From an uncultured bacterium (GTDB lineage Bacteria; Patescibacteriota; JACMRA01): a DNA stretch of 64,000 nt. Under the pieces are notes generated by a model. The model was given only the letters and a program-made list of their open reading frames with translations, was not told the origin of the DNA and made no database searches. The position numbers and the translations under genes were made by a program. Location of the stretch: NCBI GenBank assembly GCA_963704645.1, contig OY969926.1, positions 800,001 to 864,000 of the forward strand, in the 5' to 3' direction. How positions within the stretch are numbered: position 1 is the stretch's first letter; each line of letters opens with the position of its first letter. This document shows positions 1 through 3,228 of the stretch, in pieces.

Positions 1-3000
1 GTAGGCAGATCTAAGATATTGGCATTCAGCGAAAATTAGATATCTCTTACCTATCATTTCTAAGTATGAACTTGGGGGCTGGGTAGTTAAACTAAAACCA
101 CTAGTTCCAGCAGGACATGTAAAACTGCTGTTCATGGTATTAGTAAATGGATTATTGTATTGGATTCTTACAAAATCATCATTTGGTTGGTAAACACTTC
201 TAGTGTATTGACACTCTGTTAGGAAGGCATACCTCTTCTTCCCCATTTCCATAATACCAGTGGCAGAATTTGAAGCTTGACCATAGAAACCAGCATGAGG
301 AGTTATGTTTAGAACATTGTTATCATCTGCTACTAGAGGTGTATTATCCCATACAGAATTTGGAATAGCTCCACCCATACCAGAATCTGTGTTACAAATA
401 GGGTCTCCTGAAGCAGGAGTTAAACAATTAATTGTTGTATTTGGAATATATGTAAAAGCATTACCATTAGGAATAAGATTGTTAGCGTTGGTATCATTAT
501 CTGTAATAGCTGCATTGCTTACTGCCCCATTAGTTTTATTCTGGTAAGCAAGTCTTACACATATTGTAGAACCTGCTGGTGTATTAGATAATGTTGTTGA
601 GTAGCTTGAAGTAGATGTTGGACATACTGCACTTGCTCCTGTTCCTGAAGTAGGAAGAGCTAATAACTTTTTAACACTAAAGGCTGGGTCACCTGTTACT
701 GTAATTCCACTTCCATTAGTTCCACTGTTTACTGAAGTAAATTCTGGGGTTGTTGCTGTAGATGAAATTGTAGATTGTGTTCCATAGTTTCCCCCCGCGG
801 TGCCTGCTGGGATAATCATTTCATATTGGATGTAGGATTTAGAGCGGGTGGCGTCTAGGGTGTCAACACTGGTAAATTCATTTGGATAACCTACAGCATT
901 TATAGCAACATAACCAGCAACATCAGCTTCACCTGGCGTACAACCTTGTGCCACAGATAAAGCAATAGAGCTTAGATTATCTGCAGAATATAGACTGTCA
1001 TAATTCATAAAATCTAAAGTAGTTGGATTTTGTCTGATACAGTGTAAATAATGTAAGTATCTATTACCTAAAGTAGATTTGGTTTGAATTTGATTTGGGA
1101 AATTAGCATTATTCCAGTTGGTATAACCTGCATTATCTACACTTCCTGGCGCACAATAACTTGGCAATGTCTCAGTTGAATTATTATTTACTCCATAAGT
1201 TTTAAAGTAGTTTACTAAGTCGTTTCCAAGCTGGCGAGTACAAGTTAGACCATGAATATATCTATCACCTAAAGTATCAAAACCATAAGCCCTGTTTGGA
1301 TCATCACTAACATTCCAACTTGTATAATTTGCACCATCTACACTTCCAGGTACACAACTAGGTGTTAATATAGTGTTTAATGTATTTGCAAAACTCACTG
1401 CGGCGTTAAAAGCAATAATATCTGCTCTATTAATGTTAGGTTGTGCTGTTCGAACACAGCTAAATGTATTTAGATACCTCATCTTCCCAATATCCTTAAC
1501 ACCAGCAACCGCATTGTAAGCAGTACCACCACTAGCAACAGTAGTTCCAGCAGCATCATACAAACCTGCACTTGGAGAAACTCCAGAAGCATTAGTTAAT
1601 GTAGAGAATAGAGTATCTTTGTTTGCAGCTGTTCCACTATCACAAACAAGTTCTGTGTTATCTGGAGAAGTAATTGTTGTAGTACTAGGATTTAAACAAT
1701 TTTTAGCAGATCCTGCTACATAGGTAAATGTATTTGGAAGGCTGTCTTTAATGTTAGCACTAGCAGAAGAAATACCTCCTGTGTTTTCATTCCATAATCT
1801 TACTAAAACAGATTGTCCTGGGTTAGCAGATACTGTAGGGCTCCATGTACTTCCTCCGTCTACAGAGTATAGTTTTGTGTAGGTTATGTTTGGAGTGGAT
1901 ACGTTGGTTATTGTTAAAGAGCTAGCTGTTCCTGAAGTTTTAGCTCCACCTGCATTTAGGGTTCCTGTTGTTCCTACTTGTTGTCCGTTGGTAAGTCCAC
2001 TGGTTGGTGCTTGCATGGAGTAAGAGATGTAGCCGTGGCCTCTGGTGGTGTCTGAGAGGTCGGAAGTACCTACAGTGGCATTTACTAGTTCTGCATTTTG
2101 ATCACAGTTTGCGGTGGCAGTAAGAGTATTATCTATAGAAATAATGTCATAATATGTATAGGTATCAATAGTTGAGTTTGTTCTTGTCCTTGCATAGTTA
2201 CATTGATTTTGATGAAGATATCTACCTCCTAAAGAATCTTTTACTGAGCTTGTGATGTTAGTTAAATATTGGGCAATACTTGGAGTAACAGAAGCACAGG
2301 TTACTGTTGTAGCTAGAGTATTGTCGTATTCCCAAACATCTCGATATGAATAATTATCATCGTCAGTTGGATTATAGTAATTGCATTGACCTTGAGTAAT
2401 GTATCTGTTTCCTGCAGTAAAGAGTGTTGCTACTTGGTTAAATGAAGTTTGGGCGGATATATTGCATGTAGTTGTTGTAATTAAAGTTGAGCTAAATCTA
2501 ATATTTCGAGTGCTGTAATTATCTGCGTTTGCAGTATCAGTGTAATTACACTGGTCTACTGCTAGATACCTCTTCTTCCCCAACTCCAAATTAGAAGAAG
2601 TAAGAGTATTATCCACACCATATCCAAAGTATCCAGCACCTGGTGCTACAGAAAGGTTCTGTCCTGTAAATACATTATTGTTTAGTGTTACTGGTGTTGC
2701 GTCTACATAACTATTTGTTACTGCTCCTACTCTTGTGAAGTTGGCTGGCATACTATCTGTAATGTTGGCTGCTGTTACAGATGCTGTAGTTGTATTATTA
2801 TAATAGTTTCTTACATTAACTAATTCTCCTGGAGCAATATCTAAACTTCTATATAATTGTCCGTTCTTTTCATACATTTTTACAAAACATACTCCTGCTG
2901 TATTTGTTCCTCCATTAGATGTATAAGTTGCACAGTCTGAGGGGTTAAAAGCAGTTGCTGTTGTATTTGCTGCTTTGGCTGTATCAGAATCTTGTTTTAA

Positions 3001-3135
3001 TAGGTTGTATGTAAATAATCCTGAGATAAGAAGTACAGAAAGAACTAGAAGAGAGATTAAAGAATATTTTCCTTTTTTAGATTGGAAGAAGGAATTTAGA
3101 TTAGTGTCTTTTTTCAAAGATTTTTTTTGGTTCAT
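1..3135 (-). CDS. Large secreted/membrane-anchored surface protein with at least 3 tandem modules (DUF11-like frame plus variable triple Cys repeat); runs off the left window edge
   Basis: Absent from the ORF track because no stop codon lies in the window. Manual translation of most of the frame from ATG 3135 (MNQKKSLKKD...) toward base 1 found no stop. The N-terminus is near-identical to 49995..51653. Module junctions GKKRY/GKMRY lie at about 2570, 1480 and 235. Confidence 0.9.
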   Translation of the reverse strand, partial: MNQKKSLKKDTNLNSFFQSKKGKYSLISLLVLSVLLISGLFTYNLLKQDSDTAKAANTTATAFNPSDCATYTSNGGTNTAGVCFVKMYEKNGQLYRSLDIAPGELVNVRNYYNNTTTASVTAANITDSMPANFTRVGAVTNSYVDATPVTLNNNVFTGQNLSVAPGAGYFGYGVDNTLTSSNLELGKKRYLAVDQCNYTDTANADNYSTRNIRFSSTLITTTTCNISAQTSFNQVATLFTAGNRYITQGQCNYYNPTDDDNYSYRDVWEYDNTLATTVTCASVTPSIAQYLTNITSSVKDSLGGRYLHQNQCNYARTRTNSTIDTYTYYDIISIDNTLTATANCDQNAELVNATVGTSDLSDTTRGHGYISYSMQAPTSGLTNGQQVGTTGTLNAGGAKTSGTASSLTITNVSTPNITYTKLYSVDGGSTWSPTVSANPGQSVLVRLWNENTGGISSASANIKDSLPNTFTYVAGSAKNCLNPSTTTITSPDNTELVCDSGTAANKDTLFSTLTNASGVSPSAGLYDAAGTTVASGGTAYNAVAGVKDIGKMRYLNTFSCVRTAQPNINRADIIAFNAAVSFANTLNTILTPSCVPGSVDGANYTSWNVSDDPNRAYGFDTLGDRYIHGLTCTRQLGNDLVNYFKTYGVNNNSTETLPSYCAPGSVDNAGYTNWNNANFPNQIQTKSTLGNRYLHYLHCIRQNPTTLDFMNYDSLYSADNLSSIALSVAQGCTPGEADVAGYVAINAVGYPNEFTSVDTLDATRSKSYIQYEMIIPAGTAGGNYGTQSTISSTATTPEFTSVNSGTNGSGITVTGDPAFSVKKLLALPTSGTGASAVCPTSTSSYSTTLSNTPAGSTICVRLAYQNKTNGAVSNAAITDNDTNANNLIPNGNAFTYIPNTTINCLTPASGDPICNTDSGMGGAIPNSVWDNTPLVADDNNVLNITPHAGFYGQASNSATGIMEMGKKRYAFLTECQYTRSVYQPNDDFVRIQYNNPFTNTMNSSFTCPAGTSGFSLTTQPPSSYLEMIGKRYLIFAECQYLRSAY
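1912..2068 (-). repeat. 157-bp block, inverted copy of 51050..51206
   Basis: Ungapped near-identity; encodes TSDLSDTTRGHGYISYSMQAP...GTASSLT in both genes. Confidence 0.92.
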
Positions 3136-3228
3136 ATTTTGTTTTTGTTTTTTTAAATACACACAGAAGAGTATATTTTCTGCTTATGCTTGTTAGTGTA
3201 TTTTGTTTTTTTGTTTTGGGCAAAATTG
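2566..3228 (-). repeat. 663-bp block, inverted copy of 49902..50564
   Basis: Ungapped near-identity covering 93 bp of upstream DNA and the first 190 codons, ending at GKKRY. Confidence 0.95.

Follow-up and report, generated by a model that had tools for sequence, protein, structure and literature searches.

Gene A and gene B in the window

The DNA considered here is a 64,000-bp stretch (positions 800,001 to 864,000 of contig OY969926.1, assembly GCA_963704645.1; below, the window) from an uncultured bacterium of the Patescibacteriota (JACMRA01), and our subject is a family of modular, probably surface-exposed proteins, two of which, gene A and gene B, are encoded in it. Their modules consist of a frame, predicted to be an immunoglobulin (Ig)-like domain, and of a core of repeated units inserted into that frame. 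We report that the frames are homogenised within the genome, that the cores belong to old and discrete types, and that the histories of the two parts have been uncoupled by recombination. The features are as follows.

3163..3228, minus strand: 5' flank of gene A, 66 bp, 100% identical to the flank of gene B and also to that of a third family gene, G1036 (63 bp)
1..3162, minus strand: gene A, first 1054 of 1459 codons
2974..3162, minus strand: gene A leader, with a basic N-region, one 23-residue hydrophobic helix and an A-K-A-A motif
2581..2973, minus strand: gene A module 1, N-part of the Ig-like frame, residues 64-194
2062..2580, minus strand: gene A core 1, residues 195-367, three units of 56-61 residues with two Cys each; its left edge is the 15-mer GGGAAGAAGAGGTAT at 2566-2580
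1489..2061, minus strand: gene A frame 1 C-part and frame 2 N-part, residues 368-558, with the 157-bp block at 1912-2068
865..1488, minus strand: gene A core 2, residues 559-766, three units of 67-73 residues; its left edge is GGGAAGATGAGGTAT at 1474-1488
244..864, minus strand: gene A frame 2 C-part and frame 3 N-part, residues 767-973
1..243, minus strand: start of gene A core 3, residues 974-1161, which runs past the window; left-edge 15-mer at 229-243
genome 798783-800000, before the window start: remainder of gene A (end of core 3, Ig-like linker domain, C-terminal domain)
49902..49967, plus strand: conserved 5' flank of gene B
49968..51653, plus strand: gene B, 561 aa (leader, one module, C-terminal domain), from GTG 49968, with an alternative start at ATG 49995
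50157..50549, plus strand: gene B frame N-part, residues 64-194
50550..51056, plus strand: gene B core, residues 195-363, three units of 53-59 residues
51057..51215, plus strand: gene B frame C-part, residues 364-416, opening with the 12-mer GACCTCTCAGAC
51216..51650, plus strand: C-terminal 145-residue domain of gene B
51654..52046, plus strand: conserved 3' flank of gene B, 393 bp

Searching window positions 1-3400 against the whole window with blastn (word size 11, E<=1e-3) returned the two gap-free blocks that a first-pass annotation of the sequence had noticed. Block 1 covers 663 bp (2566-3228 / 50564-49902; 97.13% identity, 19 mismatches, E 0) and block 2 covers 157 bp (1912-2068 / 51206-51050; 90.45% identity, 15 mismatches, E 2e-57), the copies in gene A and gene B being inverted relative to each other. 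At these settings the DNA between the blocks, 497 bp in gene A and 485 bp in gene B, gave no alignment at all, as had been stated, and the encoded cores (core 1 of gene A and the single core of gene B) are 26% identical as proteins. The border DNA agrees with the sharp stop and restart described in that annotation: identity ends right behind the GKKRY codons and resumes at TSDLSDTTRGHGYI, TCC GAC CTC TCA GAC (…SDLSD…). Both cores hold three repeats opening with G-x-[RK]-[YN], with a first Cys 5-6 residues on and a second ~25-35 residues further, so that the annotated pattern G.RY.....C....C stands as to the three repeats per core but not as to the second Cys, which it had placed 4 residues after the first. 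The same design does recur twice more in gene A, with GKMRY at residue 559 (window ~1488), VDTLDATRSKSYI at residue 766 (~867) and GKKRY at residue 974 (~243).

Gene A as a whole spans genome positions 798783-803162 on the minus strand and encodes 1459 aa. Because it crosses the window start, its open reading frame (ORF) is given with open ends only. Beyond the two blocks, gene A and gene B also agree over 740 bp at 96.6% identity, a stretch that takes in the 145-residue domain at the C-terminus and ~320 bp of downstream sequence and that, for gene A, lies outside the window. Judging from its sequence, the 5' flank common to gene A, gene B and G1036 is probably a shared promoter or 5' untranslated region, and the leader of gene A, read by eye, would be a signal peptide or signal anchor. 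An A8 tract lies in the common leader at 50002-50009, two codons past ATG 49995, with A7 and A6 tracts close by; it is possible that the A8 tract acts as a slipped-strand on/off switch.

Homogenised frames and old cores

The genome is a single contig of 1,272,640 bp. With gene A as the query, tblastn found 32 segments at at least 16 places, and 17 large ORFs carry the common leader and/or the common C-terminal domain, amounting to 17,764 codons or 4.2% of the genome. By tblastn and ORF calls, six core-bearing genes were identified among the 17 ORFs, with 12 cores in all. Gene A has three modules and gene B one; the other four core genes are listed here.

G476, 1411 aa, three modules
G633, 1354 aa, three modules
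G1036, 581 aa, one module
G1196, 1023 aa, one module, a more distant family member

No silent or partial core copies were found by tblastn of all 12 cores against the whole genome. Since the matches of every core are confined to the six full-length core genes, the genome holds no store of silent cores.

Alignment of the 12 modules with four metagenome proteins (alignment A1) yielded three frame classes, M1, M2 and M3, which are homologous and ~25% identical. Among G633, gene A, gene B and G1036 the M1 frames are 95.1-99.7% identical in nucleotides, and the three copies in a sister genome, G001, are 84-92% identical to one another; between the genomes the figure is 81-85%, the M1 frame of G476 being an outlier at 67-72%. 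For the C-terminal domain, which occurs at 13 places in the genome, nucleotide identity to the other four close core genes is 97.5-98.8%, against 68-75% between genomes, and the 393-bp 3' flank (51654-52046 at gene B) is 96-99% identical downstream of five family genes. The synonymous divergence (dS) between gene B and G1036 is 0.01-0.04 (leader, N-part frame, C-terminal domain) and that between gene B and gene A is 0.07-0.4 (N- and C-part frames), compared with ~0.8 to the sister species. In a maximum-likelihood frame tree the three sister-species copies form one clade (98/96), and the four close copies of this genome form its sister clade (91/93). These comparisons show the leader, frames, C-terminal domain and flanks to be homogenised among the paralogs, by gene conversion or recent duplication, and most strongly at the gene ends.

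Core types are well kept where they recur. The gene B core has a copy in G001 that is 92% identical in amino acids (dS 0.88, non-synonymous divergence (dN) 0.053, dN/dS 0.06), above the 85% and 70% of the frames beside it, and the same type is present at 85% in the metagenome protein P0003. Core 1 of G633 and the core of G1036 are likewise of one type (94.5% aa, 92.9% nt, dS 0.27, dN 0.027), so the same core does occur in different genes. Of all pairs among the 22 cores in the two genomes, just 3 are more than 50% identical and the rest lie at ~30%; for the three cores of gene A, the 160 proteins collected from outside the genome include no relative above 36%. At the level of sequence, then, the cores are shown to be old, discrete and mutually unrelated types under purifying selection. 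The word hypervariable, which had been applied to them, does not hold as a mutational property, given a shared type that is better kept than its frames. Gradual divergence, which had been named as the pattern that would speak against exchange, is seen in part, as slow change within a core type.

Flanks and cores tell different stories in several genes. The flanks of G1036 and gene B agree over 660 bp at 99.85% and over 982 bp at 98.9%, the second stretch including 393 bp past the stop codon, and the cores that they enclose are unrelated (26.7% aa). Gene B and the G001 gene with the same core are rejected as a clade of the frame tree by the approximately unbiased (AU) test (difference in log-likelihood 64.7, p 1.4e-6); the neighbours of that G001 gene map to ~326-334 kb of this genome, not to 850 kb, and it has at least two modules versus one in gene B. 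At a syntenic locus, where the gene just upstream of G476 is 89% identical in amino acids over 1324 residues to the gene upstream of the three-module gene of G001, the frames of G476 and its positional ortholog are 67%, 72%, 87% and 61% identical, versus 25%, 33% and 15% for the cores, and core 2 consists of three 59-residue units in one and of two 84-residue units in the other. Weaker signs of one core class across frame classes come from H27_258 (M1) and H29_541 (M2), at 42%, and from H28_123 (M1) and H29_914 (M3), at 39%.

Near-identical frames around cores that are ~26% identical might also result from rapid divergence of the cores in place, under diversifying selection after recent duplication and without any exchange. 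This account is very improbable and, on these data, already contradicted: one core type has stayed at 92% across species with a dN/dS of 0.06 while the adjoining frames changed more, a single type sits in two different genes, the two versions of core 2 at the orthologous locus do not agree in length or number of units, and the frame tree conflicts with the core grouping. As a retained core type changes only 8% in the same time, in-place divergence cannot account for the mosaic, and therefore either whole cores were replaced or relocated by recombination at constant flanks or flanks were converted around resident cores; both routes lead to the same mosaic. The sequences support, on either route, an uncoupling of core and flank histories by recombination at constant flanks. 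The core exchange suggested by the first-pass annotation gains support in this sense from the flanks of G1036 and gene B, the syntenic locus and the AU test.

We also considered that the shared blocks might be collapsed or chimeric repeats of the assembly. A sediment-metagenome run (X1) contains 34% of the words in contigs of 162-506 nt with a depth of 2-10, and those listed break at the shared blocks; no frame/core junction is bridged among the pieces listed, and one loose end is adapter sequence. The sister assembly, too, breaks inside a core of identical units. Such breaks are what an artefact would produce, but the blocks differ by 3-10%, all six ORFs are intact, and the same frame-core-frame order is found in independent assemblies, namely in the sister genome and in P0003, P0008 and P0009, with a fragment, P0004, running from frame to core. 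The junction into the gene-B-type core is itself present in the sister genome and in P0003, and we give next to no credence to an artefact.

The time scale of exchange is evolutionary, between species and between paralogs, and ongoing programmed switching goes beyond the evidence. High-frequency antigenic or specificity variation, with cores copied into expression sites by gene conversion within a population, would fit the constant flanks and sharp borders, the rare-codon motifs unique in the genome to both borders (below), which could be recombination signals, and the identical units of one core, which would mark very recent events. It is hard to reconcile with a genome in which tblastn of the 12 cores finds no silent or partial copies and in which the single duplicated core pair is old (dS 0.27). 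We therefore judge programmed variation to be quite improbable, and the swappable system of the annotation, taken as such a switch, is not upheld.

Diversity-generating retroelements (DGRs) are frequent in bacteria of the candidate phyla radiation (CPR), which speaks for considering them, or another form of targeted mutagenesis, as the source of core diversity. The annotation had seen no reverse transcriptase in the window, and the whole single-contig genome gave no match to RVT_1 either, although control genomes matched. The cores are, moreover, unalignable from end to end and do not differ at scattered sites, and blastn revealed no pair of template and variable repeats; a DGR is as good as excluded.

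Fold, units and borders of the module

A profile of the module searched against 1.84 billion cluster representatives retrieved 264 proteins at E<=1e-3, of which 132 reach E<=1e-30. A good number of them have a single module, a length of 430-480 residues and a high-GC composition; these contain a unit of the form G-x-R-Y-L-N-L-x-Q-C-x-Y … C three times and, in 32 of 43 cases, end in a hydrophobic segment and a basic tail. Six Cys are found in at least 90% of the rows of an alignment of 78 sequences (A2). The AlphaFold2 model built on A2 has a predicted local distance difference test score (pLDDT) of 85.5 and a predicted template modelling score (pTM) of 0.86, with confident core strands, loops at 60-72 and, by DSSP, ~three long strands per unit; an earlier model on 16 sequences reached a core pLDDT of 64.5, and its Foldseek matches are meaningless. 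Compared by VIA-align, the frame of the A2 model matches the BcpA pilin (3kpt_A) over 133 residues from both sides of the insert, with Z 12.8 and a root-mean-square deviation of 2.6. In all, 60 chains reach Z>=8, and BcpA is followed by SSA1632, CppA, the Ig domains of PrgB, RrgB and antigen I/II.

According to this model, the module is an Ig-like beta-sandwich of the Gram-positive pilin/adhesin type (DUF11-like by sequence) with the core inserted between two strands. The core measures 140-210 residues and has three, rarely two, units, each opening with G-x-R-Y and containing two conserved Cys. The model, the structural alignment and the six conserved Cys together favour the modular protein with a three-repeat insert in an Ig/DUF11-like domain that had been proposed from the sequence.

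Curated families account for little of the module. Pfam assigned no family at E<=0.01 to 27 of 40 homologs and nothing significant to gene A or gene B, for which NCBIfam also gave nothing above cut-off. The DUF11-type repeat TIGR01451 matches the N-half of the frame, with 17.3 bits for module 2 of gene A against a cut-off of 24 and no match for gene B; the homolog P0115, at 30.2 bits, passes that cut-off, four homologs score 19.2-24.5 bits against the Pfam DUF11 cut-off of 24.6, and P0020 is labelled 'TIGR01451 family' by JGI. Pfam matches of the 12 cores were scattered and at chance level, and ESM Atlas gave no usable match for the core. DUF7838, a weak match in the first Pfam run, was dropped as a core family when it was not reproduced with the 12 cores. 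A sequence-profile search of the PDB with A2 gave 0 matches at E<=10, Foldseek of the whole A2 model against the PDB gave none at E<=1e-3, and in viral structures it picked up nothing beyond a weak DUF11 protein with a template modelling (TM) score of 0.14. Frame and three-unit insert constitute, as far as these comparisons reach, an unannotated domain family for which no solved relative was found.

The units of one core range from identical to ~75% diverged. In core 2 of G476 a 177-bp unit stands three times with 100% identity (genome 478444-478954 region), which points to very recent triplication or homogenisation, or else to assembly uncertainty; the units of G633 core 2 are 70-83% identical, and those of gene A cores 1 and 2 and of G476 core 1 are at background level. 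In 13 of the 22 cores all unit pairs are at least 36% identical, compared with a between-core mean of 24-31%, and every unit has its best match within its own core in 9 of 22 and within a twin core in 4 more. This distribution suggests that core types may arise by triplication or internal homogenisation of a single unit and then decay; with members from identical to fully diverged, the cores would offer a natural series on the birth and decay of symmetric repeat domains. G001 has a core with identical units as well, and its contig breaks inside that core. Unit number also varies: module 2 of G001:C3 and P0009 have two longer units (84 and 80 residues, or ~57).

The core borders are marked in the DNA. 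The left-border 15-mer GGGAAGAWGARGTAT has 10 copies in the genome, each on the left edge of a different one of the 12 cores, and 3 in G001, also at core edges; a reversed control pattern has 0. In the window the left-edge motif lies at 2566-2580, 1474-1488, 229-243 and 50550-50564. It is written in rare codons (GGG for 8.8% of Gly, AAG for 21% of Lys, AGG for 16% of Arg), the probability of its spelling of GKKRY being ~4e-4, and the internal unit starts are spelled GGT/GGA AAA AGA TAT instead. One module of G025, the genome of another family, carries the exact 15-mer too, and other relatives have a different spelling. At the right border, variants of a 12-mer, GAYAYCCTAGAC and GACCTYYYMGAC, total 11 copies, all at the right edges of 11 cores in five closely related genes (in the window, at 2050-2061, 853-864 and 51057-51068). 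Both motifs are kept across the three frame classes, which share only ~25% of residues. The border stretches have 43-56% GC in a genome of 33% GC, and codon agreement at identical residues between frame classes is 238/283 in the borders versus 912/1654 elsewhere in the frames, although the pairs are non-independent. A complementarity of left and right motifs was considered as a signal and dropped, as it extends over only 6 nt and is missing in half of the variants.

The motifs could reflect selection at the nucleotide level, on a recombination joint or a translational pause, or borders that travel with the cores. A bolder proposal is that the cores are mobile tip cassettes, for which the 15-mer and the C-rich 12-mer serve as recombination or template-switch signals between non-homologous frames and loci without a reverse transcriptase, new cores being made by triplication of single units into an undescribed pseudo-threefold binding fold. 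It would, if true, amount to a novel way of shuffling specificity in the host recognition of episymbiotic bacteria, but we consider it decidedly unlikely.

A probable surface role, related systems and distribution

The explanation that we favour, with a probability of roughly two in three, is that these genes form a paralogous family of exported, probably cell-surface proteins with homogenised frames and old cores that are replaced as whole units, the core being an exposed ligand-binding tip. Each protein is built of a common leader, one to three modules and a common C-terminal domain. Cores are replaced or relocated whole, with recombination end points exactly at the frame/core borders, and the units inside a core appear to be homogenised or newly triplicated. 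The 12 tips, of at least 10 types, may thus constitute a repertoire for attachment to a host or substrate, and lineages would change specificity by swapping them. We infer an exposed surface protein with functional tips because of the leader, the pilin/adhesin-type frame, the sortase-type or membrane-anchor tails of the high-GC homologs and the strong constraint within core types combined with their wholesale replacement; attachment or host recognition would be the obvious role in an episymbiotic lineage.

The cores could, however, vary in the manner described and yet be structural parts of the envelope, S-layer-like, or decoys that meet phage or host defence and change so as to evade it. The core has no match among binding-domain families, and the protein family makes up ~4% of the genome, both of which would suit such a role. 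The strong purifying selection on a given core type is more readily explained by a specific ligand than by evasion alone, and the frame shares its fold with pilins and adhesins, among which there are proteins with an inserted binding domain. A non-binding role is accordingly unlikely, though it deserves to be kept in mind.

Several points weigh against the favoured reading of a replaceable binding tip. The binding or adhesion role of the core is our inference, with no lectin or adhesin family matching the core in Pfam, ESM Atlas or the PDB profile search, and its pseudo-threefold shape and disulfides are likewise predicted from sequence and secondary structure. Homogenisation is weaker in the mid-gene M2 frame (84-89% within the genome vs 74-79% between species), and in the block of M2 C-part and M3 N-part G476 is closer to its G001 ortholog (83.8%) than to its paralogs (77-81%). 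The between-species comparison consists of one sister genome and a few metagenome fragments, and from two genomes gene conversion of the frames cannot be told apart from recent duplication followed by core import. The clade rejected by the AU test had been picked after inspection of the identity matrix, and the perfect triple repeat of G476 comes from one assembly.

A mosaic surface family shaped by gene conversion is of a known kind. The Opa proteins of Neisseria are encoded by about a dozen complete, expressed paralogs per genome, whose framework is homogenised by gene conversion and whose hypervariable segments set receptor specificity and are reassorted among loci and strains. Similarly, the family of gene A and gene B comprises complete paralogs, with frames closer within the genome than between species and with variable segments reassorted among loci. 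An Opa protein is an 8-stranded beta-barrel in a diderm and varies in its surface loops, whereas in the present family a whole three-unit domain would interrupt an Ig-like stalk on a monoderm-type cell. Pentamer repeats give Opa its phase variation; nothing of the kind is shown for the family, which has only the A8 tract of the leader. In Borrelia vlsE, Neisseria pilE/pilS and Anaplasma msp2, segments between conserved flanks are replaced by homologous recombination. The present family differs from these in having neither a silent archive nor a single expression site, and in its evolutionary time scale.

In structure, the nearest relatives are Gram-positive pilins and MSCRAMMs (BcpA 3kpt, RrgB 2x9z, RrgA 2ww8, GBS104 3txa, SpaC 6m48, antigen I/II 3qe5), which share the modelled fold of the frame with Z 8.6-12.8 over 125-144 residues. 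As in tip pilins, a large domain is inserted within the sandwich, and sortases are encoded in the genome; the insert, however, is not a vWFA domain and is matched by no solved chain in sequence, and gene A and gene B differ from pilins and MSCRAMMs in lacking an LPXTG-type signal. DUF11/TIGR01451 resembles the N-half of the frame, the window proteins scoring below its cut-offs and the three-unit insert lying outside DUF11.

Deeply diverged, discrete types that persist amid homogenised surroundings are also described for merozoite surface proteins of Plasmodium falciparum, in which, according to the accessible text, paralog gene conversion maintains allelic dimorphism (PMC10919680). That case concerns a eukaryotic sexual population with two types per gene, and ours many types in a multi-module protein. 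For CPR Peribacteria, large Cys-rich (~7%) extracellular proteins with a proposed role in attachment have been reported, in which strain variation is concentrated (PMC4736985); Cys in the family of gene A and gene B amounts to ~2%, at fixed positions only, and the portion of that paper available to us contains neither a frame/core architecture nor a recombination analysis. A hypervariable repeat in a surface protein of another kind appears, again in the text accessible, in a Gracilibacteria genome (10.1101/595074). Literature searches on Patescibacteria surface proteins returned no description of the frame/core architecture, the Peribacteria and Gracilibacteria papers being concerned with other proteins. 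The novelty lies in the module with its insert of three units, in the marked core borders and in the Patescibacteria-type setting.

Host recognition and attachment in ultra-small episymbionts are largely open, the publications, as far as their accessible parts go, centring on type IV pili. The family offers candidate parts for this process, namely 12 interchangeable tips on a conserved stalk, encoded by ~1.5% of the genome, each type being under constraint and passed between loci and species. Should the cores prove to be binding domains, core types might serve to predict host range, and each core could be expressed and tested separately.

In a sample of 301 genomes of the phylum, 11 have the module, namely the genome of the window, 9 of 15 others of its family and the 1 genome of the sister family; it was not found in the other 284 genomes searched. 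A large expansion is seen only in this genus, with 16 matches in G001, and a scan for related loci with a single family protein recovered only the sister genome. No close strain variants were found among 5.8 billion proteins. The distribution is patchy, covering one family/order of the phylum and many high-GC single-module proteins. By amino-acid composition alone the latter are probably actinobacterial, and transfer of the module between lineages is possible.

The cell that carries gene A and gene B is consistent with a small-genome, monoderm-type member of the Patescibacteria: the genome has two sortase genes and no match to Omp85, and the 15 same-phylum genomes listed from other families all measure 0.7-1.2 Mb. 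Gene A and gene B, both ending in KAGSIGVTSIGGSGL, have no LPXTG-type sorting signal at the C-terminus, and a motif L[PA]xT[GAS] occurs in the last 45 residues of 5 of 147 homologs. The C-terminal domain, for which there was no family match and no usable ESM Atlas match, may be an anchoring or sorting domain. Ending in NYDFKAGSIGVTSIGGSGL, it is the last domain of at least 13 large ORFs whose passenger domains otherwise differ. The 393-bp 3' flank, which has no Rfam match and a folding z-score of -1.9, contains two GTAG-headed hairpins of the repetitive extragenic palindrome (REP) type and a GC-rich 160-nt stretch that ends in a terminator-like hairpin.

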